In this document: positions 1 through 64,000 of the stretch, in pieces | Layout of the letters: each line of letters begins with the position of its first letter | How positions within the stretch are numbered: position 1 is the stretch's first letter | Source: a virus | Strand: one strand, 5' to 3' | Length of the DNA: 64,000 nucleotides | Virus record (IMG/VR): IMGVR_UViG_3300045988_123611 | Notes under the pieces: model-generated | Told to the model about the DNA's origin: nothing | Database searches by the model: none | The model's input: only the letters and a program-made list of their open reading frames with translations | Made by a program: the position numbers and the translations under genes

Positions 1-68
1 TTTGGTACATCAATGTTTTAAAATTTGCTGTTAGCGTCTTTGTTATTCAAAAAGAAAGGAAAGATAAA

Positions 69-272
69 TTATGCGTTTGCGGGTTCCACATTCTTCGGTC
101 TGCGGAACTTTACATAACGCTCACCATCATATCGGGACATCCAAATGATTGTGCCATCCTTAAAATGGAAATCATAAGTAAAATCCTTATCCTGTTCATC
201 AACCTGATGGCAAAAGCCCTTACCGTACTTCTTAGAATAAACCTTATCGCCGGGCTTAAACTTAAACTTCAT
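69..272 (-). CDS. small hypothetical protein (67 aa)
   Basis: Complete ORF with an AAGGAG site 8 nt upstream of the ATG. No TAG. Near the tRNA array. Confidence 0.45.
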   Translation of the reverse strand: MKFKFKPGDKVYSKKYGKGFCHQVDEQDKDFTYDFHFKDGTIIWMSRYDGERYVKFRRPKNVEPANA

Positions 273-310
273 TTAGATATCTCCTTTTGGATTATTTTAA
301 TTTTACAAGA

Positions 311-384
311 CACAAATGAAATATTTGTTGGAATTGAACCAACTACAATTTGTTTAACAGACAAATACTCTACCAATGAGTTAA
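311..384 (-). tRNA. tRNA-Asn(GTT)-like, AT-rich, no encoded CCA
   Basis: Minus-strand cloverleaf. D arm ACTC/GAGT, anticodon loop CTGTTAA, T arm GTTGG-TTCAATT-CCAAC. Paralogous to the tRNA-Asn at 3523-3599. Confidence 0.4.
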
Positions 385-471
385 AATACTTTCAATAGAA
401 AATGATTGCTGTGTGTGTCTTTATTACTGTGATACCTCTTAAAAGAGGGCTTACGGCATTACGCCTAATAT

Positions 472-1262
472 TTATATGTTTTTCCATTCATCATCAGTGT
501 ATAAATTTATAATTTTTTTTGTATTAGGTAAATTATAAGAAATACACCATTTTCTAATGGAATTATCACTTACATGATATATATTCGCGATAGAAGTAAA
601 ACTTTTATTACGAATCAATTTTTTTAATTTATCACGAGAAGGTCTTTTAATTTTTCGATGTTCTTTAGCAGAACATTTCTAACATTTTTGACCTTTTCCG
701 CTCCACTCTCCACCACATATAGGACAAACTTTTTTTAAAAGTTTTTTCTCTTCTTCTGGTTTATTTTTATCAAAACGAGAATAATGTAAAGGATAATTTA
801 ATTTTTCATTAAACCAAGTTCTTCCAACATTTATATCTCTAATAGTATCTTTACTAACTTTATATTTTTTAGCTAATTCCGAATGATTAACTACACCTAA
901 CTTATCATTAATTAAAATATTTTGAATATCTTGGACTTCCTAATAATTTAATTTTTGATAAATTACGCGATAATCTCCACCTATTGTCTAATTATACTCT
1001 GGTTTATAATAATCAATCCAATAAGTTTCTCTACTATTTAGATTATCAATTTCACATTCTTCTAACACTTCAAATATAAAATTAGAAACACCATATTTTC
1101 TGAAACTTTGATATAAGGGATAATTATAGCTTTTACTCTTTTCATCTTGGGAGCTATATATATGATTTTCCCAACGTTCTGCTATATTTCTTGACTATCC
1201 AATATAACAATGATTATTTATTTTATTAGTAATTTTATAAATTCCTATCATATTACCATCTC
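472..1262 (-). CDS. GIY-YIG homing endonuclease with C-terminal zinc finger/HTH; four in-frame TAG codons
   Basis: Translation MIGIYKITNKINNHCYIG(tag)SRNIAERWENH gives the GIY-x9-YIG motif. The TAG falls exactly at the conserved Gln of YIGQS. CPICGG...C finger. AAGGAG RBS. It is an ORF only if TAG is sense. Confidence 0.75.
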
Positions 1263-1334
1263 CTTACACTATAATTAAAATTTTATTTAAGATAATTATA
1301 ATTTTTCGACCTCGAAAGTATTTAGGTGATGATA

Positions 1335-1407
1335 TGGTTGCGGTCGGGCGATTCGAACGCCGTTTTTGGCTTATGAGGCCAACGAGCTACCTTTGCTCCA
1401 CCACCGC
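1335..1407 (-). tRNA. tRNA-Met (CAT)
   Basis: Acceptor GCGGTGG, anticodon loop CTCATAA, T loop GGCGTTCGAATCGCC, 3' CCA encoded. Confidence 0.75.
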
Positions 1408-1409
1408 AA

Positions 1410-1485
1410 TGGTCGGTCAAATTAGAATCGAACTAATATCCCTTGTCTTATGAGAACAATGCTCTACCAGTTAAGCTATTGACCG
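1410..1485 (-). tRNA. tRNA with CAT anticodon (second Met/initiator or Ile2-lysidine type)
   Basis: Acceptor CGGTCAA, anticodon loop CTCATAA, T loop TTAGTTCGATTCTAA, CCA encoded. Confidence 0.7.
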
Positions 1486-1642
1486 AAAATAGGATAGATA
1501 TAATATTCATGACTATTATATCTATTGGACTTTCTAACCTATCGTCCCAAAATTCTTAATAGACCTCATCAAATGGCCAACTTTTGTAGAGGCTTTTGTG
1601 CGACCACCTGCGCACTTACATAGACATAAGAATAATGCCAAC

Positions 1643-1722
1643 GTATGGCGACCCCGACGGGTGCCGACCCCGCTATCTCCAGCGTGACAGGCTGGCGGCT
1701 CTGCTGACTGCCCCCAGGGCCA
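1643..1722 (-). ncRNA. GC-rich tRNA-like element, unresolved. Possible anticodon arm CCAGC-CTGTCAC-GCTGG (GTC, Asp) but non-canonical T arm.
   Basis: A 65% GC island inside the tRNA array with a good anticodon-arm hairpin. I could not fold a canonical acceptor/T arm by eye. Confidence 0.25.
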
Positions 1723-1724
1723 TA

Positions 1725-1801
1725 TGGTACTCCCAGCCGGATTCGAACCGGCGACTCCAACGTGAAAGGCTGGTGACTTAAGTCCGCTTGTCGATGGGAG
1801 C
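1725..1801 (-). tRNA. tRNA-Glu (TTC)
   Basis: Acceptor GCTCCCA/TGGGAGT, anticodon stem CCAGC/GTTGG, loop CTTTCAC, T loop GGTTCGAATCC, CCA. Confidence 0.7.
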
Positions 1802-1868
1802 ATATTAAATAGACTATAAAGCCGTTTATTAGGGCAAATAATATTTCAGTTCCTTACTAAAAGCGATA

Positions 1869-1946
1869 AAAGTAAGGTGGTGGCGCGAAGGGGATTCGAA
1901 CCCAACTATCGCGAGAGTGAGAATCTCGCATCCTAAACCGTTAGAC
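1869..1946 (-). tRNA. tRNA with anticodon CTC (Glu, GAG)
   Basis: T loop GGTTCGAATCC. Anticodon arm GCGAGA-TTCTCAC-TCTCGC with U33 and A37. CCA encoded. Acceptor has one mismatch. Confidence 0.55.
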
Positions 1947-1959
1947 GACCGCGTCATAT

Positions 1960-2216
1960 TTAAGCACATCTATCATAATCTTGATTTTTGTGCTTTTGTT
2001 TTCGCTTAAACGAGCCTTTACCTTTCTTCGCAGGAACTTTAAATCCTCTGCGCCGAAACAATTGAAGATACTCATTAAGCTCTTCCTTATTCTTTTTCAT
2101 ATAACTTTTATTCACGGTATTCATCCTCATCTTCATAAAGGGAAAGATCCTGATAAGCAGCATATTCATCACTCTGAATCTCGCAAGCATAGCTTTCATA
2201 GTAATCATTATACATA
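1960..2216 (-). CDS. small hypothetical protein(s). A 35-aa acidic ORF is favoured by RBS spacing, with an overlapping 82-aa alternative frame.
   Basis: Class-A early promoter and AAGAAAGGAAG RBS upstream. The frame is ambiguous. Confidence 0.3.
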
Positions 2217-2224
2217 ATTTAAAT

Positions 2225-2280
2225 CTTCCTTTCTTAACTTTCTATAAATATTATAACTTATTTTTTATAAAATGTCAAAA
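2225..2280 (-). promoter_or_regulatory. Class-A early promoter: TTGACA-N17-TATAAT plus conserved ATATAGAAAGTTAAGAAAGGA leader
   Basis: The reverse complement reads CTTTTGACATTTTATAAAAAATAAGTTATAATATTTATAGAAAGTTAAGAAAGGAA. The same module recurs upstream of about 20 minus-strand genes. Confidence 0.6.
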
Positions 2281-2394
2281 GATTAAAAGACCAACCAAAA
2301 GCGATATTTGTTAACGATGGTCGCCACTCCACCGCCGTCAATATTCACAAACACTTACCATTTTCACACTAACCTACTAATTAAAGGAGGTGAC

Positions 2395-2482
2395 TGGTGC
2401 TTCGAGAGAGACTTGAACTCTCACCATCCGTTCGGATAATCGGGTTTGAGCCGATCGCGTCTGCCAATTCCGCCATCAAAGC
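2395..2482 (-). tRNA. tRNA-Leu (CAA), class II with long variable arm
   Basis: 88 nt. Anticodon arm ATCGG-CTCAAAC-CCGAT, variable arm ATCCGAACGGATGG, T loop GAGAGTTCAAGTCTCTC, CCA. Confidence 0.7.
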
Positions 2483-2496
2483 ATAACTAAGAGGAT

Positions 2497-2625
2497 TTTT
2501 AAGAAGAATCCTCAAAACTTCTTTCTAATCATCTAATTGGATTTTTAAGAAGAACCCTCAAAACTTCTTTCTAATCTAACGGAAGTTTTAAGAAGATCTT
2601 CCAACTTCTTTCTAATCTTAATCGC
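2497..2625. repeat. Three tandem copies of a ~42-bp unit (TTTTAAGAAGAATCCTCAAAACTTCTTTCTAATC...), each with an internal AAGAAG/CTTCTT inverted repeat
   Basis: Direct inspection. Followed by the GC hairpin GGGCGGCCGTCCCTTCGCGGCG. Confidence 0.7.
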
Positions 2626-3029
2626 ACTTTAGGGCGGCCGTCCCTTCGCGGCGTCACGATTTGCATAATTTACTGTATTACCATTTTATTTTCCGAAAAA
2701 GGCTACAAACCAAAATGGGAGTTATTTAAGAATAACTTCTAGACTACGCTAACTGCTCAAATTTTCTCTTCTTAGTGGGAAAAACTTTCTTAGCGCTGAA
2801 ACCAAAATCACTATTAGCATTTTGTATATATTATCTTATTGTATATAAGTTTTATTAATATACCTTATCTATTATATCATTTAGTATATTGTATTAATGT
2901 TTAATTAATAAGATAATATTTCTGGCTGTTTTTATCACCAATCATATAATTGGTTATATTGGGCAATGCTCCCAAACTTGCGGTTTACTTAACCGCCGTG
3001 CTTACTCTTTACACCATATAACCATATAA

Positions 3030-3108
3030 TGGTGGACCTCGTGAGAATCGAACTCACCTGATTTTCTGTGTGCAAGACAGACGACCACGCCATGCAGTCC
3101 CGAAGCCC
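3030..3108 (-). tRNA. tRNA-Ala (TGC), tentative
   Basis: T arm GTGAG-TTCGATT-CTCAC. Anticodon arm TCTGT-CTTGCAC-ACAGA. Acceptor GGGCTTC/GAGGTCC has two G-U pairs. CCA encoded. Confidence 0.45.
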
Positions 3109-3195
3109 GAAATGCGACTTATTTATGTATAGATGGAGTCGCCAACCACCTGCGTTCAAAGTCCGCAAGCCTTCAACGCATTCCCAGGGAGGGAT

Positions 3196-3272
3196 TGGTG
3201 CTGGAGAAAGGACTCGAACCTTCAGATTAATGATCCTAAATCATTCGTCTATGCCAATTCGACTACACCAGC
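3196..3272 (-). tRNA. class-I tRNA with anticodon TAG (decodes CUA, Leu-type). G37 present.
   Basis: Acceptor GCTGGTG/CTCCAGC. Anticodon arm AATGA-TTTAGGA-TCATT. T loop GGTTCGAGTCC. CCA. Note it is not the CTA suppressor. Confidence 0.55.
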
Positions 3273-3284
3273 AAATAAAGAGTT

Positions 3285-3380
3285 TTATAACCCACATCGC
3301 GAAGATTCGAACTTCGTCAACCGTTAGGACTCGAACCAACTTTTACTCTTTTGGATTCCCAGAACCCATAGCCTTGATTA
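3285..3380 (-). ncRNA. tRNA-like element with two T-loop-like motifs (GTTCGAGTC and CGAAG-TTCGAAT-CTTCG). Possible long-arm or degenerate tRNA.
   Basis: Motifs seen by eye. A full cloverleaf was not resolved. Confidence 0.25.
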
Positions 3381-3522
3381 ATGTGAGTATAGCCACTACT
3401 TCACAATAAGTTTTACTTCGCTTTCTTATATTTAGTCGGGCGTTTTCCGCAAACCACATACTCTTTCGATCGGTGGTAGTTTAAACTTACAAAATCCGTG
3501 TTAACGCCCCAATGGCGGGAGA

Positions 3523-3599
3523 GATAGGATTCGAACCTATGACATCTTGTTTAACAGACAAGCGCTCTAACCAACTGAGCTACACTCCCATAAAAGAAG
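3523..3599 (-). tRNA. tRNA-Asn (GTT)
   Basis: Acceptor GGGAGTG, D arm GCTCAGTTGGTTAGAGC, anticodon arm CTTGT-CTGTTAA-ACAAG, T loop GGTTCGAATCC, CCA. Confidence 0.75.
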
Positions 3600-3699
3600 G
3601 ACTTTTTAAAATCCTTACTTTATATATTTATTATATTATATTTTTTTTAAAAAATCAACTTTTCTCTTTTACCCAAATTTTTTTATTTTCTTTTTTCTT

Positions 3700-3750
3700 T
3701 CTTCATTTTATATAAATATTATATAATATTTTTTATAAAATGTCAATAAG
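3700..3750 (-). promoter_or_regulatory. Class-A promoter facing the tRNA-Asn and tRNA array
   Basis: RC reads TTGACATTTTATAAAAAATATTATATAAT. Same consensus as 2225-2280. Confidence 0.5.
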
Positions 3751-3925
3751 GTCTTTGAATTGGCATTAAATCATCTTCTGAAAGAAGCCACTTTTCACCA
3801 TGCTCATCAAGGACTTCAATCTGATAATTTAATACTCGAATGACAGTACATTTAAGATACTGTCTACGATAACAACGACCACGATAAGGGACAAAACAAT
3901 AAGAATTACCAACTTCAATATTCAT
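3743..3925 (-). CDS. small hypothetical protein (60 aa)
   Basis: GAAAGGAGAAAATAAATAATG RBS. Class-A promoter at 3935-3990. Confidence 0.5.
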   Translation of the reverse strand: MNIEVGNSYCFVPYRGRCYRRQYLKCTVIRVLNYQIEVLDEHGEKWLLSEDDLMPIQRPY

Positions 3926-4081
3926 TATTTATTTTCTCCTTTCTCAACTTTCTATATATATTATATTATATATTTTTAATAAAATCAAAAAAGTTCTTTT
4001 TGTTTAAGTAGATTTAACAAATTTACCACAATTTTAGTCGAAATCAGGAACACCGCGTGAAGGTATTGTGGATAGTTCCCG

Positions 4082-4153
4082 CAGGCGCCGTAGGATTCGA
4101 ACCCACACCTCAAGATTTTGGAGATCCGAATGCGACCGTTACACCAGACGCCT
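4082..4153 (-). tRNA. tRNA-Trp (CCA), no encoded 3' CCA
   Basis: Acceptor AGGCGTC/GGCGCCT. Anticodon loop CTCCAAA with U33 and A37. T loop GGGTTCGAATCC. Confidence 0.5.
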
Positions 4154-4164
4154 ATAAAACAAGA

Positions 4165-4250
4165 CCTTAACTTTGTCCGGAAAATGGATTTGAACCATTA
4201 ACTTAATCTTAAATGATTATGACCTAACCTTTAGTCTATTCTGGAAGTTA
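4165..4250 (-). ncRNA. tRNA-like gene with atypical anticodon arm. Perfect stem TAATC/GATTA but a 6-nt loop ATTTAA.
   Basis: T arm AATGG-TTCAAAT-CCATT, D arm GACT...GGTC, acceptor TCCAGAA/TTCCGGA. Loop geometry is non-canonical. Confidence 0.3.
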
Positions 4251-4324
4251 TTTTTGCTGTAAAGGTCTTTCTTTATTTTATAAATATATTATATATTATT
4301 TTTTTAAAAATGTCAAAAAATTTT

Positions 4325-5641
4325 TTAATTCGTTATTAGTTTCCATGTAGTGTTATTTATTTTTACATATACTCTACTGTCAGGATGAGCCATATAATAA
4401 GTTAAGTATACTGAACCGGTAGTAGAAGAATTGCTATAAGGCTTAACATATATATAATAAGTAGTTCCAGCCGTAACTTTATAACAAATACCAAAATTAG
4501 CTCCAGTACCGCCATATTTTTTTGCATAATCATCATCGCTAGCTAAAATATTAGAAGAAGGCTATCCACTATCATTAAGAGAAGTAATACTTGATGTTAA
4601 ATAACCATAAGTGTCTATTGAAGAATTAGAATAAACAATAAAGTCCCCTGAAATAGTAGGAGTAAAAGAAAAATATCGACAAGTGCTTGGAGATAAAGTC
4701 CAAGAAGAGGTGTTCTATTTGTTATAAGTGGGAGCAGATATTGACACAGTAGAATAAGCCCAATTTGCTATAGACTAAATAGTAATTCTTATATAGCCAT
4801 TTCCACCATGACCTGTTTCAGATGACCCTGTTGGAGAAATAAATGAAGAATTACCTGCGATAGTTGATGCAGAAGTTAAATAATAGTTACTATTTAACAA
4901 ACAACCAGAAGGATAATTAGAAGCAGTGGATGAGGTATATACATAACCAGAACCTCCGCCACCATGATATTTTGTTCCACCCTGCATATTAGAGAGTGAA
5001 ACAATTCCACCATACCAGCCGCCTCCTCCAGCTCCATTTATATTATAAGAAGAACTGGATGAATATCCATTTCCTCCTACTCCAAAGCTATTTCCTGAAG
5101 TTTGTGTACTTAGACCTGGACTATTAGACCCTGCTACACTACTGGTGCCCCCACCGGCATCTCCGCTTTCTGTATTAGATCCCCAAGAGGTAGCTCCGCC
5201 TCCGCCGGCGACAATTACACGAGCGTAGAGAGAGTTTGATCCAATACGAATATCAGAAGCTCCTCCACCACCACCGCTTCGAGACATAGATCCGGAGACT
5301 CCTCCAGTACCGCCTCCATTAAATCCTCCTGTATAATCATTAGCAGAAGAAGAAATACAACCTCCTTTTCCACCAGTATATAAATATACCGTTTGAGAGG
5401 AAGAAAGAGTTAAAATTCCCGTTGAATATCCACCTTTTCCTCCTATAGCTCCCGAAGAAGCGTCAAAACTAGAGTTACTATTAGCACCATTTCCTCCCTA
5501 AGCCCCCCAACATTCTAATTTATAAGTACCTTTTGGAAGGGCAATATTTTTATAAGTTCCACTATAAGGACAATTTAATATATCTCCTGTTTTTAAAGAA
5601 GAAGAAGAAGGAATTGAAGAAGTTAAGTCGTAAGTTGCCAT
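4325..5641 (-). CDS. Gly-rich tail-fibre-like protein, copy 2. Four in-frame TAG codons.
   Basis: GGAGG RBS + ATG at 5641. Motifs KLECWGA(tag)GGNG, GGGGGASDIRIGSNSLYARVIVAGGGG and NYPSGCLLNSNYYLT are shared with copy 1. It is an ORF only if TAG is sense. Confidence 0.6.
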
Positions 5642-7035
5642 GTAGTTATTCCTCCTTTCCAAGTCGTATTATCTATTTTTGTGTATATCGCTTTAATGGG
5701 AGCATAAGTATTAGAATTGATTTTTACATTTAATGGTGATAATACAGTAATGCGAATATATCCCTACGTCCCTCCAGGATTAGTTCTATTATATCCCATT
5801 GTAGTAGAAGCATTTGTTAAATAATAGTTACTATTTAACAAACAACCAGAAGGATAATTAGAAGCGGTTGATGAAGTATATACATACCCAGAACCACCAC
5901 CATTATAAGTTCTATAATCAGCAGAGCTATCACTAACATTAGTAGAAGCACCACCACCATACCAGCCGCCACCACCACCACCGGGGCCATAATTATAATT
6001 AGTAGATCCACTAGCATCAGCACCTTGACCAAAAGATCCATTTGTTCCTGCTTTAGTCTATGTAGCCTTATATTCTTCAACCGCAGAGTTACCCGTCAAT
6101 CCGCCACCCTATTTAATAGAAGAATTACTTTCTCCCGCGCCACCACCACCACCACCGGCAACAATTACACGGGCATAAAGAGAGTCTTGACCTACGCGGA
6201 TATCGGAAGCTCCTCCGCCTCCTCCACCTGATGTGTAAGCAGAAGTATACCATCTAATCCTAGAGCTACCTCCTCCATTAAATCCACCATTAACTATCTT
6301 ACCTTTTTCACTATCACTTGAATAACTACCATGCCCCCCGGTGTATAAATAAATAGTGGTAGGAACTGGTAAAGAAAGAATTCCTATAGAATATCCTCCT
6401 GTTCCACCCCAATAACTATTTTTTGAACTCGCAGGAGTATAAGTAGTATTACTTTCCTATTTCTAAATCTAAAAATAAACTTCTTCATTATCCACGGAAT
6501 TTGAGCTATCTTTAGTATAAGTCATTACGATAGTAGATCCTGATGATAAAGAATAAGTGCCAGTAGTAGTAAGAGAACTTGATCCAGAAACCGCATTTAA
6601 AACTGTATTTCCTCCAACAGTTAAAGTGACTTTATCATAGCTTGCTTCAGTTTTATAATAATATGAAAATTTATAAGTCCCCCCAGAAGTACAAGTTAAT
6701 GTAGTTGTAGCAGTACTTGAATCTATTCCTCCGTTAGTAGCTATCCAGTCATTTCCGTCTTGACGAAAATAATAATTTGAATCATTAACAGTAAAATAAC
6801 TGGTCGCATTATGAGTTCCTATATATATCCATGAAGTTGTTGTTGATGAAGTTAAAGAACCAGAATAACCAATTCCGCCATAGCCACCCCAACATTCTAA
6901 TTGATAATTTCCCGCTGGAAGTTTTACTGGATTTACCGCTCCTGAATAGCTACTATTAATAATATCTCCTGGAATAAATTTAATAGAAGAATAATCTGTT
7001 ATAGAAGTTCCAGAAGGATTATAAGTATTTGGCAT
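5623..7035 (-). CDS. Gly-rich tail-fibre-like protein, copy 1. At least six in-frame TAG codons, three of them within 13 nt at 6457-6471.
   Basis: AGGAGG RBS + ATG at 7035. Motifs LPAGNYQLECWGGYGG and GGGGGASDIRVGQDSLYARVIVAGGGG. Overlaps copy 2 by 19 nt. Confidence 0.6.
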
Positions 7036-7051
7036 TTAAATTCCTCCTCTA

Positions 7052-7606
7052 TTAAGTGAAATACTAAATCCAAATATCTCCAACATTTCCGTCTGAAGCG
7101 GTGGGAGCAGAAGTGGATACTTTAATATTTCTTAAAATATTATTGTTTAAATAAGAAGAATTAGTAGTGACAGATAAATTAGATCCCATAGAACCATTAG
7201 TAATCTAAGCTAAGTCTAATCCTGGATTAATGGGTAAAATATAATCACCACTGGATGACCCTAATTGTATCTATCCGATAAATGCTTCATCTTTATATAG
7301 AAAATTTGCTTCTACAGCAGTATTCTAATGCCAACATCCTAATCCATTATTAGAATGTTCTTTTTTAATATAATATTGAGTTAATTTTAATGCTCCTAAA
7401 TTATTTATATTTATTGTTATATTAGTAATTGGATTTGTCGCAACATTATTCATATTTGGAATAAGGCCAATAATCATTCCGTCTTTATATTCTTTAATAG
7501 ATTTTGCGGTTCCTATGTAAGTTAATCCATCAGTAGAAGTAATTGGAATAATTTCTAAACTACCACTTCCACTACGCATATGTTCTATTGCTTTTGGAAT
7601 TGCCAT
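7052..7606 (-). CDS. hypothetical late/structural protein with three in-frame TAG
   Basis: GGAGG RBS + ATG at 7606. ORF continues through TAG at 7325 to TAA at 7052. Confidence 0.5.
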
Positions 7607-7690
7607 TTAAATGACCTCCTTATAAATTTTATTATTTCTATAAAATTTAAAAATTTATAGGTAAGTCATTAATTTAATTTGGTTAAATAA

Positions 7691-7724
7691 AAAAAGAGTA
7701 ATGTCAAATGACATTACTCTTTAG
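7691..7724. terminator. Bidirectional rho-independent terminator
   Basis: AGAGTAATGTCA-AA-TGACATTACTCT hairpin flanked by A/T runs. Confidence 0.6.
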
Positions 7725-7725
7725 A

Positions 7726-8031
7726 TTAACTTAATCCCAATCTTGCCTTTAAATCGGCAATATTTTTCTTTTCATCTATAGTGATTTCAATTGGGGTTTC
7801 TCCGCCTGCAGTTGCCCCATCTTCAAAATTCAAAACATTTGAATCCGCGGTTGCACCTGCTTCACCGATCGGAGTCTTTGGGCACGTCATACTAATAGCA
7901 ATCTGAATTCGCTCACCATTTTCATTAGCCCAAAGATAATACTTTTTATCTCGCTCGCCGATCCAATCAGCGCCAAATACTTCCGCCATTTTCTTAGCGA
8001 TTTGTTCCTTAGCTACTGCACCTTTAGCCAT
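7726..8031 (-). CDS. hypothetical protein (101 aa)
   Basis: Complete ORF, no TAG. First gene of the non-recoded early block. Confidence 0.55.
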   Translation of the reverse strand: MAKGAVAKEQIAKKMAEVFGADWIGERDKKYYLWANENGERIQIAISMTCPKTPIGEAGATADSNVLNFEDGATAGGETPIEITIDEKKNIADLKARLGLS

Positions 8032-8043
8032 ATCTAATTCTCC

Positions 8044-13705: not shown

Positions 13706-13718
13706 GGTTTTATTATAT

Positions 13719-22690: not shown

Positions 22691-22704
22691 CATTTTTATT
22701 CTCC

Positions 22705-28723: not shown

Positions 28724-28724
28724 A

Positions 28725-52958: not shown

Positions 52959-52971
52959 AGGAGGGTGGAAA

Positions 52972-53328: not shown

Positions 53329-53341
53329 AGGAGGTGGAACT

Positions 53342-54991: not shown

Positions 54992-55000
54992 GGAGGATTT

Positions 55001-56578
55001 ATGAAACATACAAGTATTAAATTAAATACACCTTGTGAGTTTATAAATATAACTCCTGTAAATCCTTTAATTTCTAAATGCCAAATTAAGGTTTGTTATG
55101 TAGATGATAAACCTAATCGTAACAAAAGCGTAATTACTAAAGATGTAGCGACTGAGATGGCTAATAGTCTTCCTGGCAGTCCTATTGTTGGCTTTTTTAA
55201 TGAGAATGCTGAAGATTTTGAAGAACATAATAGGATAATTGAATTATCTAATGGCGAATTTAGAATGAGAGATAATACTCGCCCTTATGGTTTTGTTGAT
55301 CTTGGAGCTAAAGTTTGGTTTTAGAAATTTTTGGATGATGGTGTTGCCGAACGCGAGTATTTAATGACTGAAGGTTATTTATGGACTGGTTAGTATCCTG
55401 AATGTAAACGTGTAATTGATAAAGGGAATAATCATTCTATGGAGCTTGATGAAAAAACATTAAATGCTACGTGGGCAAAAGATAGCAATGGAAAACCTTA
55501 GTTTTTTATTATAAATAAGGCAATTATTTCTAAACTTTGTATTTTGGGAGAAGAAAATGAACCTTGTTTTGAAGGCTCCCAAATCAATGTGAATTTTTCA
55601 TTCGATGATGGTTTTAAGAACACTTTGTTCTCCATGATGAATGAACTTAAAGAATTTATGAAAGAAGGAGGAGCCAAAGTGTTTACACAATACGCTGTTA
55701 ATATTGGCGACAATTTGTGGAATTCTCTTTATTCTTATATTGAGAATAAGTATCCTGTCGAACCAAAGAATTATTGTTCTGTTTATCGCATTGAAGGTGT
55801 TTGCGAAGATGGTGAACAAAAGTTTGCTGTTTTGAAGAATAAACAGGATGAAAAATACTATCGTATGGATTTTTCTCTTGAAGCAGAGAATTTCGTTCCT
55901 TCTGATACTTTGATTGAAGTAACTGATTATGCTCCTGCGGCAGAGCCTCAGTTTGCTCTTAATGCTGTAGAAGAATTTGAAAATGAGTATGCTTCAAAAA
56001 AGAAAGCAGAAGAGGACAAAAATAATAAATCAAATAATCCTGACGGTGAAAATAAATCAGAGGGTAATGATAATAAAAAGAACCCTGATAATGGGGATCC
56101 CTCTAATAAGTCTGATAAAGGCGACAACGGTGAGAATGATGATGATAAAAAGAAAAAGAAAAATTATTCTCTTGAGGATGTCGTTGAATATACTGAACTT
56201 AAAGCTCAGTATGATGAATTACAGACTAAATTCGCGGCTCTTGAAACTGAAAATAATAGCTTGAAAGAGCAAATTGCTCCACTTGCTGAATTTAAAAATG
56301 CCGCTGAAAAGAAAGATAAAGAAGATATGATTGCTAAATTCTATATGCTTTCTGATGAAGATAAGGCTGATGTTGTTGAAAATATTGATAAATATTCTCT
56401 TGATGATATTGAAGCTAAATTATCTGTTATTTGTGTTCGCAACAAGGTGAGTTTCGACCTTGACGAAAATAATAAGCCCAATGGTGCTACTACTTTTAAT
56501 TTGAACAATAATGGTTCAGAAGATGATGATATGCCCGCTTGGGTGAAGGCGGCTTTTGCTACCGCCAACAAAAATTAA
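55001..56578 (+). CDS. scaffolding protein (putative), three in-frame TAG
   Basis: KD-rich low-complexity linker. Coiled-coil ELKAQYDELQTKFAALETENNSLKEQIAPLAEF. Located between portal and capsid genes. Confidence 0.5.
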
Positions 56579-56595
56579 TAAGGAGGACATACTAA

Positions 56596-57513
56596 ATGTT
56601 TAAAGACTTTTTGAATAAGAATCTTCCTATTAAGTCTCAGGCAAAGTATGTTGAGTTTGGTTACGGTCAGGTCGAGCCTAATCACCTTTCCGCGCAAAGA
56701 AATGCTCAAATCTATGCTCAACTTCCCGCCAATAAAGACATTGAGATTCTTGAAAACGGTCAGTTTGTAAAGTATGACTATGCTGCTAATGGTAATGGTA
56801 TCGGCGAAGTCAACTTCACTGGCGAAGGTGAATGGATGCTCGTTTATAACGAGATTAAGCTTTATCGTGATCATTATGATGGCAGTAAGCAGTGGGACTG
56901 CGAATTTGCTATGATTAAAGATGACTATCAGGCTCGTGTTTATAGTCCTTATGATTGGGAGCATACCGAGGTTGAATATGGTGGTCGTTTCTGGAATGGT
57001 GTTGATGAAAAGGGTCAAACCTATAAATTAATCAATCAAACCGTTTCCGCAGATCAGGGCTTAAAGACTGTTACTATTGCTGGTCGTGTTTATGATGTTG
57101 ATGAAACCGGTAAGTTTACTTATGATGGTAATGAATATACTCTTGATAGTAATCATCAGGTTGCTAATGTTCCTGTAAAGTATTATTATGATAAACTTCT
57201 TACTGATGTTCCTGATATGTATGAAATGAATTGGACCAATGATCCATATCATAAGTTGGGCATCTATCATGAGAAGTTCATGGAATCTGGCACTTCTATG
57301 GTTCCTCGTGTATTTAAGACCATGATTGGTGATCTTTATACTACTAATATGATTAATGAAGAGACTCTTGCTGTTGGAGATAAGCTTTCTCCTTCTGCGG
57401 CTACAAAGGGTATTCTTAGCAAAACTGGCGACGATTCAATGACCTGGCAGGTTGTTAAAGTTTATACTATGCCTGATGGTCAAAAGGGCGTCAAAGTAAT
57501 GCGTATTAAGTAA
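56596..57513 (+). CDS. abundant virion protein (305 aa, no TAG). Capsid-associated, possibly the major capsid protein.
   Basis: AAGGAGG RBS. High-expression codon usage. No TAG. Confidence 0.45.
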   Translation: MFKDFLNKNLPIKSQAKYVEFGYGQVEPNHLSAQRNAQIYAQLPANKDIEILENGQFVKYDYAANGNGIGEVNFTGEGEWMLVYNEIKLYRDHYDGSKQWDCEFAMIKDDYQARVYSPYDWEHTEVEYGGRFWNGVDEKGQTYKLINQTVSADQGLKTVTIAGRVYDVDETGKFTYDGNEYTLDSNHQVANVPVKYYYDKLLTDVPDMYEMNWTNDPYHKLGIYHEKFMESGTSMVPRVFKTMIGDLYTTNMINEETLAVGDKLSPSAATKGILSKTGDDSMTWQVVKVYTMPDGQKGVKVMRIK

Positions 57514-57530
57514 GAAAGGAGAAAAGGATA

Positions 57531-58637
57531 ATGTTAGATAAAAATAATTTAATTGCTCTTATGAAGCAAGTTGCTAAGGCTGATCCTTCTGCTCCTGTTG
57601 CTTATAGTTATGAGGGAAAAAATCTTAGTTATGAAGCCTTAAATGAAACTCTTCGTAATGAAATGAATGAGTTGGCTGGTACTTACGCTCTTTATCGTGA
57701 AAATAAGAATCTTATTTTCTCTATGATTGAGCAGACTCTTGATGAGGTTCTTCCTAAGAAAGTTATTCAGCAATATGATCAGTTTGCTGAGGTTAAGACT
57801 TTCGCTCAGGGTGATAAGCCTATTTTCCGCCGTCCTCTTAATAATCGTGCTCGTGCTAAGCAGTTTGTAACTCGCGTTGGTCTTGCTGGTATTTATGAAG
57901 TCTTCAAGCTCGGACCTAAAGAGAATGAAGCCTTCGAGGTACGCACTAGCGCTATCGGCGGAGCTGCTCAGATTGGCTTCGAAGAATTCCTTGATGGTCG
58001 TGTTGATTTTGGTGAAGTAACCAAGATCATCATGGATGGTATGGATGAACTTATTTATAAAGAAGTCGCTGCTGCTCTTAGATCTTCTATCAATCAGCTT
58101 CCTCCTGCTAACCGCGTTGCGGCTGCCGGATTTGATGAAGCTGCTATGGATCGTTTGATCACTATTGCTTCTGCTTATGGTACTCCTACTATTTATTGTA
58201 CTTATGAGTTCGCTGTTAAGATGATTCCTCATGAGGCTTGGAGATATACTGAAGCTATGAAGAACGAGCTTTGGAATAATGGTCGTCTTGCCACTTACAA
58301 GGGTACTAAGGTTATTATTCTTGAGCAGGGCTTTGAAGATGAAACCAATACTCGTAAGGTTATTGATCCTGGTTATGCTTGGGTTATTCCTACGGGCGCT
58401 GATGGTAAGCCTGTAAAGATTGCTTTCGAAGGTGGCACTATTGTTGATGAATTCAACAATTATGATCGTTCTCGTGAGATTCAGGTTTACAAGAAGGTTG
58501 GCGTAGTTTGTATGCTTGCCAATAACATCTGTGCTTATGTTGATACTTCACTTCTCGGTCAGATGTATACTTGGAATTATGATGGAGTTACTGGTAAGGT
58601 TATCACTTATGATGGTCGCCTTGGCGGTACTGTCTAA
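57531..58637 (+). CDS. major capsid protein candidate (368 aa, no TAG)
   Basis: AAGGAGAAAAGGATA-ATG. Size typical of HK97-fold MCP. Strongly biased codons and no TAG. Confidence 0.45.
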   Translation: MLDKNNLIALMKQVAKADPSAPVAYSYEGKNLSYEALNETLRNEMNELAGTYALYRENKNLIFSMIEQTLDEVLPKKVIQQYDQFAEVKTFAQGDKPIFRRPLNNRARAKQFVTRVGLAGIYEVFKLGPKENEAFEVRTSAIGGAAQIGFEEFLDGRVDFGEVTKIIMDGMDELIYKEVAAALRSSINQLPPANRVAAAGFDEAAMDRLITIASAYGTPTIYCTYEFAVKMIPHEAWRYTEAMKNELWNNGRLATYKGTKVIILEQGFEDETNTRKVIDPGYAWVIPTGADGKPVKIAFEGGTIVDEFNNYDRSREIQVYKKVGVVCMLANNICAYVDTSLLGQMYTWNYDGVTGKVITYDGRLGGTV

Positions 58638-58723
58638 TTTAATATAAATTATTCCATGGGGAGAAGGGATTAAACTCCCTCTCCCCATATTTTTGTTTTA
58701 TGAGTAAAAGGAGAAATTGAATA

Positions 58724-59317
58724 ATGATTAATAATGAAGATATTTATAATGTAAAAAATAGAAGCACTAGTGTAGTTGTTTATACTATTCCTGATACTAA
58801 TTTGCGTCGTGAATTTGCGCCCGGTGAAACTAAGCGCATTCCATTTGGTGAGCTAGAGAAGTTAACTTATCAGGCGGGCGGCCGCGAATTAATTGCTAAT
58901 TTTTTACAAATTTTAGAGCCAGAAGTAACTCATACTCTTAATGTTCATACTGAACCTGAATATAATATGTCAGAGCAACAAGTTGCTGATTTAATTCTTA
59001 ATGGCTCATTAGATGCTTTTTTAGATGCTCTTGATTTTGCTCCTATTGGAATTATTGACTTAATCAAGAATTTATCTGTTAGCCTTCCTATTACTGATAT
59101 TAATAAGCGTAGAGCTTTGAAGGAAAAAACTGGGTTTGATGTTGATAAAGCTATTGCTAATGATATCGCTAGTAAAGAAGAAGATACTATTGTAGAGAAA
59201 GAACCCGCTGCTAAGCGTCGTGTAGTAAGAGAAGAACCTACTACTCAAGGTCGTCGCACAAGCGGTTCTGGATATAAAGTAATTAATAAAACCGAGGAAA
59301 CTTCCTCCAAGAAATAA
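58724..59317 (+). CDS. virion-associated hypothetical protein (197 aa)
   Basis: AAAGGAGAAATTGAATA-ATG. Basic C-terminal tail. Confidence 0.45.
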   Translation: MINNEDIYNVKNRSTSVVVYTIPDTNLRREFAPGETKRIPFGELEKLTYQAGGRELIANFLQILEPEVTHTLNVHTEPEYNMSEQQVADLILNGSLDAFLDALDFAPIGIIDLIKNLSVSLPITDINKRRALKEKTGFDVDKAIANDIASKEEDTIVEKEPAAKRRVVREEPTTQGRRTSGSGYKVINKTEETSSKK

Positions 59318-59336
59318 TTTATAGGAGGGCGATTAA

Positions 59337-59909
59337 GTGGGAACATTATTCTCAACTGTTTATAATCGCTTTCTTAACAAGGTTACTGATGATATGTATC
59401 TGGAATTAACTCCCGAAGATACTTTAAGAGATTTATAGAATCTTATAATAGATGCTATTCCTGGATTTGAATTTCCACGAAAAAATCTTTTAGATTATAA
59501 TTTAGATGTTGCTACTATTAATGAATCTGATGCTGCGCCTGATGATTTCATTGTAGGAACAGTATGGGGAGAGCTTCCAGAACCGGGTGAAGAACCTCAA
59601 GTTTTAGTTGATAGATCCAGTTTTAATTGTGATCTAACTGAAGAAGAAATTAATATTCTAGCTATTTTAATGATGTGTGGTTGGACGCAAAGACAAGTCA
59701 CTTCAATTGAGAACACTCGAATGAAATATAGTGGCTCTGATTTTAAATTTACTTCTTAGGCAAATCATTTATCTAAATTATTAAATTTACTAGGTGAATG
59801 CCAAAGATAGTCTCACCATATGTAGCGTTTATATAAACGTAGACGCTTAAATGACAAAGGTGAGTATGAATCTAATTGGGATGTATTTAAAAGTCGGTAT
59901 GATTACTAA
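59337..59909 (+). CDS. hypothetical structural protein, four in-frame TAG (GTG start)
   Basis: TAGGAGGGCGATTAA-GTG. Confidence 0.4.
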
Positions 59910-60207
59910 ATATAATTTTGATATTCCAGTAGAAAGTATAAAGGTCAATTGTTTGCGCTTAACCAATCAATTATGGAAATTAATTCCAATGCGCGAAAAT
60001 AATGAAGATTGGCATAAATAGCTAGAAACTGTTATAAATGAAATTGTGGGGTTTAGTGTGATTTTTAGCGCTGAACCCCTTTATTTATAGTTATTAAACA
60101 AACTTGAGGGATTGTAGAATCAAGATACTGATTTTAATTTTTATCGTAAGACTGTATTTGAAACGATTAGTCTTTTATAGGAGATAAATTATGGCATCAG
60201 GGTTTGA
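59899..60207 (+). CDS. hypothetical protein, four in-frame TAG (~103 aa)
   Basis: Overlapping ATG. Continuous frame through TAGs. Confidence 0.35.
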
Positions 60208-61255
60208 TTATAGTAGTAAGCAACCTTTTAGATTACAACAAGGTCGCTTAGGAATTTATGATAAGTCACCCTTTGAAGGTAGCCCTGTTGAAGGCGTTAA
60301 TTATACAGCGGTTCGGCTCGGTCAGATGGGCGGAAACCGCCAACAAGAACGTATGATTTTATCTAAGCGCAGAAGTTTAGATAGAGCAGTATGGAATTCA
60401 TACCAAGCCGCGGAAATTATTAAATAGGACGCGGAATATAAAAAGCCTATTAGATGTTTGATTAATCCTAATAAATTAAAATAGGATTATGATGATAAGA
60501 TTTTGTCTGTTGGAAATGAATATTAGTTTAAGCCAGGAGATATTTTTGAATGGTGTGGAACTAATACTTATTGGATTTGTTATCTTTAGGATTTGACTGA
60601 ATTAGCTTATTTTAGAGGGGATATTAGAAAATGCTCTTATAAAATAAATTGGGTAGATAATGGAGAGAAAAAATCTACTTATGCAGCAATTCGCGGTCCA
60701 GTAGAAACGAAAATTGATTATATTTAGAAACATGAAATTAGCGTGGATCGACCTAATTATTCATTAAATATTTTAATGCCTAAAAATAAAGATACTTTAA
60801 GTTATTTTAGACGTTATACTAAATTTTATTTAGATAGTTAGGATGAAGGAGATAATTTAATTTGTTGGCGCGTTGAAGCTGTAGATTCCATAGGCATGCC
60901 TGGCATTTTGGAAGTCAATGCAACTGAATATTATATTAATGAGTAGGAAGATAATTTAGACGATAAGACTGTTGGTTCTTTAATTACAGAACCAATTGAT
61001 CCAAATCCTACGACAACTGATATTATAGGGGAAACATTTATTTTTCCAAAGAAAACTTATACTTATTATTTTGATGGTAAAGCTGTTTTAGAATGGGAAA
61101 TAAAGAATAATAAAAAGTTGCCGGTTTCTTTAAAAATTATTAAAGAAGCAAAAAAGCCAACAGTTGAAATAAGTTGGACTTCTGGATATAGTGGATAGTT
61201 CGATTTATGTTATGGAGACTATAAGAAAACGATTGTAGTTCAATCATTATTTTAA
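60191..61255 (+). CDS. hypothetical structural protein, ~8 in-frame TAG (~354 aa)
   Basis: GGAGATAAATT-ATG. Continuous frame to TAA. Confidence 0.4.
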
Positions 61256-61270
61256 GGAGTAAAAGGTGTT

Positions 61271-61852
61271 ATGAAAATTAATGGTGTAAATTTACCTAAA
61301 TCAAGTTTTCTTTCTGTTGAAAAAGATTTAGAAATTATTGTAAAACATCTCTGTAAAAATGAGAGATTAAAGCGCTTATTGTATTATACAACAAAAGATG
61401 CTATTGATAAGCCAGATTTAAATGATGAACAAATGATTCAATTATTTAATAAAAATATTAAGTTAATTCCTAAGCTTTATGTTGATGGAAGTGTATTAAA
61501 TTATTTAATTATTAATTTTGATAATTTTACACAAAGCGGAAATCCTGAGTTTAGAGATAATATTGTTGAATTCGATATTATTTGTCATTTTGATCAATGG
61601 CATTTAAAAGATTATCAATTGCGCCCTTATCGTATCGCCGCAGAAATTGATAGCATGATAGATAAAACACATTTAACTGGTATTGGTAAGTTAGAATTTC
61701 TTGGTGCGAATCAAATTATTTTAACTGATGAATATGCTGGTTTGTGTCTTATGTATCAGGCAGTTCATGGCGAGGAAGATAAAAAATTTATGCCGAATCC
61801 TAATGACGAGGAAAGATTTATAGAAGATTTTAAAAAAAGAACTGAAGAATAA
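61271..61852 (+). CDS. hypothetical protein (193 aa, no TAG)
   Basis: AAGGAGTAAAAGGTGTT-ATG. Confidence 0.5.
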   Translation: MKINGVNLPKSSFLSVEKDLEIIVKHLCKNERLKRLLYYTTKDAIDKPDLNDEQMIQLFNKNIKLIPKLYVDGSVLNYLIINFDNFTQSGNPEFRDNIVEFDIICHFDQWHLKDYQLRPYRIAAEIDSMIDKTHLTGIGKLEFLGANQIILTDEYAGLCLMYQAVHGEEDKKFMPNPNDEERFIEDFKKRTEE

Positions 61853-62577
61853 TGGATATTAGACTTGGTTTAATGACAGGTATTGATTTACCAATACCTG
61901 AATTAGAAGTCACTATTCATTAGCCATCTATAAAAGAAATTTCTTTTATAGGTGAAAAAGATCTTTTCTTGGGGATTTAGTGCTTATGTATTGATAAAAA
62001 CATAATAGAGAATTCGGGCGAAAGTCTTTTAAGAGAAACAAATAATTTTTAGATATTTATGACAATGATGAAAGAAAAAGAGATGGCCGATAAAAAACAA
62101 GCATCTATATAGGTTCTTACATTATTGTTTCCAAAGCAAAATGTTTTATTTACCCCGAGGTCAATTGTTTTACAAGGTGACTCACAAATAATGATTGACG
62201 AAAGCAATTTTAATATATTATAGGAATATATTAAAGAAATATTTTGTTTTAAATCTAATGCTTCGCAAGAAATGGGATTCAATCCTGGAAATGCGGCCGC
62301 GAAAAAGATAGCCGATAAATTAATGCGAGGTAGACAACGTGTCGCTGAATTAAACGGCACGGCTAATGCTAGTATATTTAGTTAGTATCTTTCAATGCTT
62401 ACTATAGGTCTTGATTCAATGTCTTTACAGGATTTAATGGATTTAACAATGTTCCAACTCTATGACCTTGTTGAAAGATATCAACTTTATATTAATTGGG
62501 ATATTGATATCCGGTCTAGATTAGCAGGCGCGAAGCCTGATAATAAGCCGGATAACTGGATGAAAAATATCCATTAA
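61852..62577 (+). CDS. hypothetical protein, six in-frame TAG (~241 aa). Candidate chaperone, since it sits before the abundant tail/virion gene.
   Basis: TAATG overlap start. Continuous frame. Confidence 0.4.
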
Positions 62578-62601
62578 ATTTTTTAAGGAGGAAAAAAACC
62601 T

Positions 62602-63585
62602 ATGAAATTTGGTGTACGCGAAATTTGCGATGTCGTTTTAAAGGCAAAGGCTAATCAAAAGATTGGTAATAAGCAATTTTATAAGAACGAGCCAGTTATT
62701 TATTTCGACACTTTAAAGACTTCCAGTATGGAAGGCGCTGCTACCACCGTATACGCACAGGGCGGTCGTGGTAATACTAACTTAGTCGCATGGGAAGGCG
62801 AGCGTACTGTTACCTTCACAATGGAAGATGCTCTTATTTCTCCTGAAGGTTTCATGATTCTTTCCGGTGCTGGTCTTGTTGAGGCTTCTGCTAACAATAA
62901 GATTAAGCAACATATTACTCAAACTGTTGATAAGACTAAAGACATTGTCCCTGCTAATACTGAAAAAGACATTAAAACTGATGGATTAATTATTCCTGTC
63001 TCTTATGCCCCTTATCTTGATAATGAACATAAAGATGACGATTATGTTTATGTTTTCTTCATGAAGGATGGCGAAATTATTTCTGAGCCTTATTTAGCAC
63101 ATGAAGGAGTTACCACTGGAGACACTGGTTTTAGTGTTACCGTAAAGGGATTTGCTCGTTCTACTGGAGCGGCTTATACTACTAACGATTTAGAGAATGA
63201 TTATGCTAAATGCGACTCTGTAATGATTGATTATTACACTGAGCGTGAATCTGGTGCTAAGCAGATTGAAATTACTGCTGATAAATTTGGTGGTAACTAT
63301 TATCTTGAAGCTTCTACTTTATTCCGTAATCAAGATGGTGTAGATATGCCTGCTGAATTTATTATTCCTAACTGTAAGATTCAGTCCAACTTTAACTTTA
63401 CAATGGCTTCTTCTGGTGATCCTTCCACTTTCACCTTTACTATGGATGCATTCCCTGACTATACTCGTTTCGATCATAGTAAGAAAGTTTTGGCTGCTAT
63501 TCAGATTATTGAAGAAGACGAAACTGTTGACAACGATATTCGTAGAAAGACCGCTGCTAATAGCACCACTGTTATTGGAGGCTAA
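62602..63585 (+). CDS. abundant virion protein (327 aa, no TAG). Candidate major tail/tube protein.
   Basis: AAGGAGGAAAAAAACCT-ATG. High-expression codon usage. Confidence 0.45.
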   Translation: MKFGVREICDVVLKAKANQKIGNKQFYKNEPVIYFDTLKTSSMEGAATTVYAQGGRGNTNLVAWEGERTVTFTMEDALISPEGFMILSGAGLVEASANNKIKQHITQTVDKTKDIVPANTEKDIKTDGLIIPVSYAPYLDNEHKDDDYVYVFFMKDGEIISEPYLAHEGVTTGDTGFSVTVKGFARSTGAAYTTNDLENDYAKCDSVMIDYYTERESGAKQIEITADKFGGNYYLEASTLFRNQDGVDMPAEFIIPNCKIQSNFNFTMASSGDPSTFTFTMDAFPDYTRFDHSKKVLAAIQIIEEDETVDNDIRRKTAANSTTVIGG

Positions 63586-63590
63586 TTAAT

Positions 63591-63773
63591 ATGGTTGTAA
63601 AAGGTCCAGTAAAATATACTCCACCAAAACAGCCTAAAAAAGAATCTACTAAAAAGCAGCCAAAAGTAGAAAAGGCTGTAAAGAAAGAGCCTATTAAACC
63701 TATTGAGGAAGTAATTCTTCAATAGGAAGATGAGGTAAGTAAGATTTTATCTGAATTAGATAAAAAAGATTAA
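63591..63773 (+). CDS. small Lys-rich protein, one in-frame TAG (~60 aa)
   Basis: ATG 5 nt after the previous stop. Confidence 0.35.
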
Positions 63774-63834
63774 TTAATGGGAGAGAATAGAAATATTCTC
63801 TCCCATTTTTTTGTTATGTGGAAAAGGAGAAAAT

Positions 63835-64000
63835 ATGGTTATTAAATCAGATGGAAATATTAAAAGTTCTTCTACTATTAATGAAACTGAAAAATAGATT
63901 ATTTAGGATATGACTACAGCAACTTAGTAGGATTGGGGATCTTTATTACAAAAATGGTCGATAGATATTTATAAATGGTTAAATAAAGCAAGAGCTTATG
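63835..64000 (+). CDS. partial gene with several TAGs, runs off window
   Basis: GGAAAAGGAGAAAAT-ATG. Confidence 0.3.

Follow-up and report, generated by a model that had tools for sequence, protein, structure and literature searches.

Gut bacteriophages in which TAG is read as a sense codon ('code 15') have been described together with a bias of the recoding towards late genes and a model in which recoding times gene expression, and the same study reported a recoded homing endonuclease amid the early genes of Agate phages (Borges et al., 2022; 10.1101/2021.08.26.457843). Recoded crAss-like phages were described by Yutin et al. (2021; PMC7886860), proteomic proof of recoding was given by Peters et al. 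(2022; PMC9523058), and for phage phAss-1 a tRNA-Sup-CTA was assigned to glutamine by tRNAscan-SE (Babkin et al., 2023; PMC10607447). Here we analyze the in-frame TAG codons of a 64,000-nt stretch of the virus record IMGVR_UViG_3300045988_123611 (in the following: the window), which represents about one third of a ~194-kb genome from a human gut metagenome. We propose, with a probability of roughly 80%, that this phage uses a two-state genetic code, in which TAG would stand for glutamine and its decoding in the TAG-containing genes would be gated by a suppressor, while the early genes would be readable in both states. The components of this proposal, namely late-biased reading of TAG as glutamine, phage-encoded suppressor tRNAs, the timing model and recoded homing endonucleases, have all been published before. 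An earlier report on stop-codon recoded phages is reportedly that of Ivanova and colleagues from 2014.

The window derives from the contig ENA ERZ28569356 BRIT16-1_SAMN02333939 scaffold_31 (194,080 bp), which is 100% identical in both overlaps checked: locus L165 aligns with window positions 1-10272 and locus L180 with positions 52602-64000, each with zero mismatches. According to the coordinates, the window spans the ends of scaffold_31, which appears to be circular with a terminal overlap of ~55 nt. An exact-pattern search of metagenome_contigs with the left end of the window gave no match. Statements on the phage's own genome cover ~84 kb of the 194 kb. The window has a G+C content of 36.8% and consists of a minus-strand tRNA array (318-4245), a minus-strand gene block that extends as far as 48.7 kb and, from 48.9 kb onwards, a plus-strand operon that fills the remainder.

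The best matches of the TerL protein are found in Enterococcus, Geobacillus, Alicyclobacillus and Bacillus phages as well as in phAss-1, with identities of 47% to Enterococcus phage H1/EF1, 46% to Geobacillus E3 and 44.7% to the published, recoded phAss-1. Most structural and large early proteins had no match in a Pfam scan, and the structural matches obtained are to the SPbeta-type families YonD_N, YonB, YomW, YomV and YomU_Tube. Since TerL is most similar to that of cultured siphophages of Bacillota and the structural families are of SPbeta type, the phage is not crAss-like, contrary to the lineage that a preliminary description of the window had named as precedent; judged by these matches, it is an SPbeta/Schiekvirus-like siphophage.

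With the code 15 gut phages it shares the reading of TAG as glutamine, a phage-encoded tRNA(CUA), recoding mostly in structural and late genes, stop codons dominated by TAA, a low G+C content, TAG/CAR (CAA or CAG) differences between close relatives and, as in the phages described by Borges et al., a recoded homing endonuclease among early genes, and the same timing mechanism has been proposed for both. It differs from them in being an SPbeta/Schiekvirus-like siphophage rather than a member of Crassvirales or a Lak phage, in early genes that avoid TAG even as a stop, and in consensus host-type promoters that mark the early class and the tRNA array. Another comparable set is the Phassvirus group (phAss-1 OQ749652, BK046881, BK025033), which, like the phage studied here, falls into one broad clade with Enterococcus EF1/H1 and Geobacillus E3; phAss-1 is held in the 'Caudoviricetes code 15 clade' of the NCBI taxonomy. 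In this group, too, TAG occurs in the TerL, portal, tape measure and fibre genes and large tRNA sets include a tRNA-Sup-CTA, and 14 late proteins of the window match phAss-1 in order. However, the genome analyzed here measures 194 kb against 133-138 kb, and TerL is less than 50% identical, which together place it in a genus-level group different from Phassvirus; a blastn comparison of 5.4 kb of late genes with phAss-1 yielded only a 73-nt match. The cultured, standard-code phages Enterococcus H1/EF1 and Geobacillus virus E3 have the same arrangement of divergent leftward small genes followed by a rightward operon, with the common order HTH protein, TerL, small endonuclease-like gene, portal, capsid and tail tube. 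In contrast to the phage studied here, they have no in-frame TAG (0 stops in 4,111 aligned codons), and TAG serves them as a normal stop (7 of 44 genes in phage H1).

In-frame TAG in late and early genes

In total, 92 in-frame TAG codons are found in 25 genes of the window. We constructed stop-to-stop open reading frames (ORFs) with TAA and TGA alone as stops and determined their coverage, for the late operon with ORFs of at least 100 amino acids. With these two stops only, the frames of the late operon are gapless, and in the comparison of code 15 with code 11 that the preliminary description had suggested, coverage of the late operon (48.9-64 kb, plus strand) rises from 0.60 under code 11 to 0.96 when TAG is sense. 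For a cassette at 4.3-7.6 kb the corresponding values are 0.50 and 0.99. Treating TGA as sense brings no gain for the late operon (0.61; 0.58 for the cassette), so that the restoration is specific to TAG. The late operon is made up as follows.

48875-48903, plus strand: the only 12/12 host-type promoter on the late coding strand, 25 nt upstream of the first rightward gene
48928-49983, plus strand: HTH and zinc-ribbon protein, first rightward gene, 2 TAG
50033-51220, plus strand: late gene, 9 TAG, PHROG match spanning the TAGs
51298-52959, plus strand: TerL, 5 TAG, PHROG match spanning the TAGs
52972-53328, plus strand: endonuclease-like gene, 3 TAG, the fourth endonuclease-type gene with TAG
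53342-54991, plus strand: portal, 10 TAG, PHROG match spanning the TAGs
55001-56578, plus strand: YonD-like scaffold candidate (Pfam YonD_N), 3 TAG
56596-57513, plus strand: late gene, TAG-free, 8 CAG
57531-58637, plus strand: capsid-like YonB (PF27364; weak match to the HK97 capsid), TAG-free, 10 CAG
58724-59317, plus strand: late gene, TAG-free, 1 CAG
59337-59909, 59866-60207, 60191-61255 and 61852-62577, plus strand: virion genes with 4, 4, 8 and 6 TAG, respectively
61271-61852, plus strand: YomW-like (Pfam), TAG-free
62602-63585, plus strand: tail tube protein (YomU_Tube, PF27173), TAG-free
63591-63773, plus strand: gene with 1 TAG
within 63591-64000 (window end), plus strand: start of a 357-aa gene with 11 TAG

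Immediately outside the window, the contig continues with the tape measure gene, whose frame stays open over at least 2,656 codons, 81 of them TAG. The minus-strand block and its surroundings hold the early genes and a further set of genes with in-frame TAG.

7726-48364, minus strand: early block with most of the 84 other minus-strand genes, most TAG-free in frame and none terminated by TAG
472-1251, minus strand: GIY-YIG homing endonuclease (PF01541, 3.7e-10; phrog_7168, 3e-34 over residues 1-234), 4 TAG
4325-5641 and 5623-7035, minus strand: glycine-rich paralogs (PF12810, 2e-45), 4 and 6 TAG
7052-7606, minus strand: 184-aa gene of the same variable cassette, 4 TAG, kept as TAG or replaced by CAA in relatives
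10506-11306, minus strand: gene with 1 TAG (codon 35), early-type promoter at 11331
22088-22693, minus strand: zinc-ribbon/OB-like gene with 1 TAG (codon 34), spanned by Pfam and PHROG matches
28100-28723, plus strand: initiator-like winged-helix gene (phrog_3396, 6e-7), 6 TAG, kept in relatives
28931-29182, plus strand: 83-aa gene, 1 TAG, present in 5 of 5 relatives
30920-31534, minus strand: HNH/NUMOD4 homing endonuclease (PF13392, 6e-11; phrog_59, 2e-29), 3 TAG
38406-38942, minus strand: HNH/NUMOD4 homing endonuclease (phrog_59, 3.5e-42 over residues 1-173, both TAGs spanned), 2 TAG
48342-48734, minus strand: small membrane protein, first leftward gene, 1 TAG (codon 37), 11/12 promoter at 48792

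Every gene that the preliminary description had listed as needing TAG as sense indeed contains it in frame. Pfam and PHROG profiles match without interruption across the TAGs of the GIY-YIG gene, both HNH/NUMOD4 genes, the PF12810 paralogs, TerL and portal, and PHROGs 3314, 3313, 3853 and 4051 behave likewise.

TAG is distributed very unevenly between the gene classes, as the count per class called for in that description makes plain. Late genes carry 59 TAG next to 144 CAA and CAG, that is 59 of 203 glutamine-equivalent sites (29%), against 3 TAG next to 238 CAA and CAG in the 84 other minus-strand genes (Fisher p=4e-19). The stops of the latter are TAA in 62 and TGA in 22 cases and TAG in none, compared to a TAG stop in 7 of 44 genes of the standard-code Enterococcus phage H1. 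The claim that some 100 other minus-strand genes lack TAG and end in TAA or TGA thus stands with regard to the stops, but their number is 84 and they hold three TAGs. By the same token, confinement of TAG to late, tail-fibre and endonuclease genes describes a strong bias and not an absolute rule, given that the TAGs in 10506-11306 and 48342-48734 are conserved in relatives. The same contrast between the classes is seen throughout the family when aligned codons are counted: across 161 related loci, the late orthologues contain 1,017 TAG in 126,591 codons, as opposed to 27 in 103,718 for the orthologues of the other minus-strand genes, and 20 of these 27 fall into two genes. Being essentially without TAG as sense or as stop, the early genes would therefore be read alike in either state of the code.

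The early class can be delimited independently by its promoters. A recurring intergenic element corresponds to a consensus promoter (TTGAYA/T, an AT-rich spacer of 17 nt, TATAAT), and 36 of the 38 perfect TTGA-N17-19-TATAAT sites are intergenic; about 30 perfect sites lie on the minus strand, either ~32 nt upstream of early genes or within the tRNA array. The sigma-A-type promoters of this strand fall within 2250-46107 (for example 4288, 15775, 20938, 24954 and 45334), many of them with a conserved AT-rich spacer or a TG-extended -10 element. Both HNH genes have consensus promoters of their own despite their TAGs (at 31654 for 30920-31534 and at 38965 for 38406-38942).

Five late genes (those starting at 56596, 57531, 58724, 61271 and 62602) are free of TAG, including the three virion genes (56596, 57531, 62602) for which this had been noted before. 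If these genes used TAG as often as the other late genes do, the probability of finding none among their 47 glutamine codons would be 2e-10. Avoidance is kept in relatives for 57531 (2 TAG in 9,409 codons) and 62602 (0 in 2,540), but not for 61271 (48 in 5,413).

The amino acid assigned to TAG

To assign an amino acid to TAG, we compared the TAG codons of the window with the codons at the same positions in relatives from IMG/VR with at least 80% protein identity. Opposite the window TAGs stand TAG in 971 cases, CAA in 171, CAG in 64 and other codons in 2. In the wider set of 161 loci, glutamine accounts for 57.5% of the non-TAG partners at TAG sites, close to its 65.7% at true glutamine sites, and the substitution profile of TAG is best fitted by glutamine (mean log-likelihood -1.77), followed by glutamate (-3.53), with tryptophan and tyrosine last or nearly so. 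Viewed in reverse, TAGs of the relatives align with TAG (511) or glutamine (289) in the window. The family of the HTH gene 48928-49983 extends to the cultured, standard-code Enterococcus phage H1, and TAG codon 149 of this gene falls on a glutamine column conserved in at least 90% of the sequences; at window TAG sites, glutamine is the commonest residue of phage H1 (13 of 47). Even near-identical genomes differ in having TAG or CAR at a site, and many TAG sites are conserved in distant relatives.

These alignments bear out the assignment to glutamine that had first been proposed from the GIY-YIG gene, where TAG was thought to occupy the invariant position of a YIG-Q-S motif. That particular argument has become weaker, as the residue following YIG is glutamine or lysine in relatives. 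Taken as sequence evidence, the comparisons support TAG as a glutamine-equivalent sense codon in the virion-morphogenesis operon, the glycine-rich cassette, four homing-endonuclease-type genes, the initiator-like gene and a few others.

Individual sites outside the late operon show how TAG varies. Codon 37 of 48342-48734 is TAG in 7 relatives, CAG in 2 and CAA in 1. Codon 35 of 10506-11306 is TAG in 7 relatives and otherwise GAA, GAG, CAA, AAA or GAT. Codon 34 of 22088-22693 is TGG (tryptophan) in three relatives; this site has probably undergone a recent TGG-to-TAG change, a nonsense-type change that the suppressor may mask.

The suppressor tRNA and a proposed two-state reading of the genome

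The tRNA array (318-4245, minus strand), annotated with ARAGORN and Rfam, comprises 11 tRNAs and one tRNA-like gene and runs on past position 1. Neither program found a tRNA(CUA) inside the window. The suppressor that the preliminary description had postulated is nevertheless part of this genome and lies shortly beyond the window edge: past position 1 the array continues with tRNAs for Phe, Ser, Leu, His, Ile, Ile and Val, followed by a tRNA(CUA) at L165:16947-17036 and a Tyr tRNA. The tRNA(CUA) is encoded 6.7 kb outside the left edge of the window, on the strand that is minus in the window, and folds as a cloverleaf with the anticodon loop CUCUAAA. Consensus promoters likewise continue in this part of the contig (L165:12535, 15326 and 15887), the latter two 1.0-1.6 kb upstream of the tRNA(CUA) with no terminator-like site in between.

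A tRNA(CUA) is present in all 8 ENA and 9 IMG/VR relatives checked, and it occurs in two forms. The contig studied here carries a 90-nt form with an extra arm of 3-4 bp, as do 4 of the 8 ENA loci and 6 IMG/VR contigs; the other 4 ENA loci and 3 IMG/VR contigs carry in its place, between identical flanks, a 73-nt body unrelated to it (e.g. L081:20122-20194). The two bodies alternate between genomes with 98-99% identical TerL, and no IMG/VR contig matched both patterns, so that each genome has one form at a single locus, unlike phAss-1, in which a 72-nt and an 88-nt suppressor homologous to both forms stand in tandem. In both forms U1 does not pair with position 72, and both have G2-C71, G10, G73 and the same anticodon arm; these features coincide with identity elements of glutaminyl-tRNA synthetase.

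From this arrangement we infer a timing mechanism. As soon as infection begins, the host RNA polymerase would transcribe the tRNA array together with the early genes; tRNA(CUA), which presumably receives its amino acid via the glutamine pathway of the host, would then build up and compete with release factor 1, and only afterwards would full-length products be made from TAG-containing mRNAs, including the endonuclease mRNAs transcribed from early-type promoters. The capsid-like and tail tube proteins, which avoid TAG and keep CAG, would fit such a scheme: the most abundant virion proteins would avoid TAG because decoding by a suppressor is slower or leakier than that of ordinary codons. The TAGs themselves would derive for the most part from CAG codons, through transitions in AT-rich genes under weak constraint. 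In essence this is the timing hypothesis of Borges et al., which the preliminary description had invoked together with control of lysis, and here it is likewise drawn from sequence. The link to lysis finds no counterpart in the window, where no lysis gene was identified.

Several observations weigh against the two-state code. The promoter classes are defined by consensus matches only, and no shared late-promoter motif is apparent upstream of the late genes, the cassette or the plus-strand island. The genes 28100-28723, 10506-11306 and 48342-48734 carry TAG though they are not obviously late, and TAG is therefore not strictly limited to virion genes. The long extra arm of the phage's own suppressor is unusual for a glutamine acceptor, and no release-factor or synthetase gene was seen in the ~84 kb of the 194 kb covered. 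A transcription cascade gated by the suppressor is only a possibility, since the PHROG label 'sigma factor' for the HTH protein 48928-49983 could not be confirmed; comparison of this protein and of the capsid-like protein with PDB sequences gave nothing useful.

The most serious competitor of the two-state code, to which we assign a considerable chance though one short of even, is permissive drift: with a suppressor tRNA in place, AT-biased mutation would turn CAG into TAG wherever the cost is small, and purifying selection would keep early and highly expressed genes clean without any regulation. The base composition of the window agrees well with such a process. GC3, the G+C content at third codon positions, falls from 0.51 in the early genes at 31-48.8 kb over 0.37 at 7.7-31 kb to 0.14-0.32 in the late genes, with CAG outnumbering CAA in early genes and the reverse in late genes, and it is lowest in the genes that contain TAG (0.12-0.28). 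CAG has nearly vanished from the latter (12 CAG, 59 TAG and 85 CAA in TAG-containing late genes; 0 CAG, 9 TAG and 15 CAA in the three endonuclease genes of the minus-strand block), while TAG-free late genes and early genes retain it. The TAG/CAR polymorphism among near-identical genomes would be expected as well, and a 'detoxification' route of this kind was described by Borges et al. Drift does not exclude regulation, however, for early genes kept clean by selection imply that suppression is weak early in infection, which is the very premise of the timing model, and the conservation of many TAG sites in distant relatives speaks against free drift. Drift is compatible with regulation without requiring it, and the choice between timing and drift becomes testable if the host is found. 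If, on the other hand, the host itself decoded TAG as sense, no switch would take place during infection. Nothing in the window identifies the host, but there would then be no reason for the early genes and their orthologues to nearly avoid a codon that occupies 29% of the glutamine sites in late genes; moreover, the phage brings its own tRNA(CUA), and relatives with known hosts infect standard-code Bacillota, which makes a TAG-decoding host very improbable. Least credible of all, to the point of being negligible, is that the TAGs are real stops in split genes, pseudogenes or assembly errors. The late region does appear as short ORFs under code 11, and PHROG families of 'unknown function' correspond to halves of TerL, but identical TAGs are found in dozens of assemblies made independently, homology continues on both sides of every TAG, the tape measure ORF stays open over 81 of them, and a cognate tRNA(CUA) exists.

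A different question is whether the 90-nt tRNA, with its long extra arm and G73, inserts another amino acid in this particular genome. An extra arm of this shape is typical of bacterial Ser, Leu or Tyr tRNAs, the own contig has this form where relatives have the 73-nt one, the anticodon arm resembles those of phage tRNA-Trp and tRNA-Tyr, and one TAG aligns with TGG. Yet in the seven genomes that carry the 90-nt tRNA, TAG is exchanged for CAA (16), CAG (11) and, in just 4 cases, other codons, and both forms serve ~50 shared fixed TAG sites, including the near-invariant glutamine column. The two forms also have the U1/72 mismatch, G2-C71, G10, G73 and the anticodon loop in common, and both occur in phAss-1, the tRNA-Sup-CTA of which was assigned to glutamine (Babkin et al., 2023), so that we regard a different amino acid as improbable. 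Charged with glutamine, the 90-nt form would be a class-II-shaped substrate of the glutamine pathway; charged otherwise, sister phages would translate the same codon differently. A search of bacterial genomes for a glutamine-anticodon version of the 73-nt suppressor returned no match, and we found no paper on long-arm suppressor tRNAs in recoded phages. One may also speculate that, in near-identical phages that swap two tRNA(CUA) bodies, the code switch itself is the master timer of late expression, because the suppressor lies behind early promoters and the first late gene (HTH) carries two TAGs; we consider this stronger version of the two-state code doubtful.

The immediate consequence concerns annotation, as the standard code shatters TerL, portal, tape measure and ~20 other genes of a widespread gut phage group. 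Knowledge of phage recoding as such is unchanged, but the genome offers an unusually clean case outside Crassvirales, in which the early class, definable independently by consensus promoters, is all but TAG-free.

Variable genes, repeats and other features of the window

Several of the TAG-containing genes are mobile or variable. The GIY-YIG gene sits inside the tRNA array and is missing at that site in most relatives; used as a search anchor, its protein retrieved only copies of 43% identity, on account of the mobility of the endonuclease. More generally, the endonucleases in the tRNA array (GIY-YIG, HNH, PD-(D/E)XK) vary from genome to genome. The HNH gene 30920-31534 forms an AT-rich island amid the GC-richer early region and is present in only one related locus. 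The cassette at 4.3-7.6 kb is missing in the loci L170, L171 and L081, and L170 carries radical-SAM and aldo-keto-reductase genes in place of the glycine-rich genes. The tail-fibre label given to the paralogs at 4325-7035 is unverified.

The initiator-like gene 28100-28723 is flanked by at least seven iterons TGGTCAAAAWTTTCT with a spacing of 22 nt (27909-28033 and 28720-28800; direct-repeat families D1 and D2), and the segment 27909-28800 forms an origin-like module on the strand opposite to its neighbours. Four perfect plus-strand promoters (33741, 36290, 37738 and 41902) lie within the minus-strand block with no plus-strand ORF downstream. They resemble each other (TTGACAAA.TTGCTGG...) and may drive antisense or small RNAs.

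Within the late operon, strong terminator-like hairpins with T-runs occur on the plus strand at 58650-58700 and 63776-63815, right after the capsid-like gene and the tail-tube gene pair, respectively. PHROGs 15503 and 24618, both annotated as 'unknown function', each match one half of TerL (51298-52959), N-terminal and C-terminal, and look like families built from code-11 fragments of recoded phages.

The tRNA array has peculiarities of its own. The tRNA-like gene at 4175-4245 (minus strand) is the first gene after the tRNA-array promoter and forms a clean cloverleaf; we rejected it as a suppressor on the basis of its 6-nt anticodon loop without CUA. In relatives it is invariant outside the loop, which reads ATTTAA or CTTCAA. 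The tRNA-Trp(CCA) occurs in a 73-nt allele (window 4081-4153, minus strand) and an 85-nt allele (L081:9836-9920) among close relatives, and its anticodon arm differs from that of the suppressor mainly at position 35. Beyond the window, the own contig carries a gene with NAGPA and SPOR domains and 2 TAG within the tRNA array (L165:14459-15316), which by its domains is a possible cell-wall hydrolase and a candidate lysis gene.

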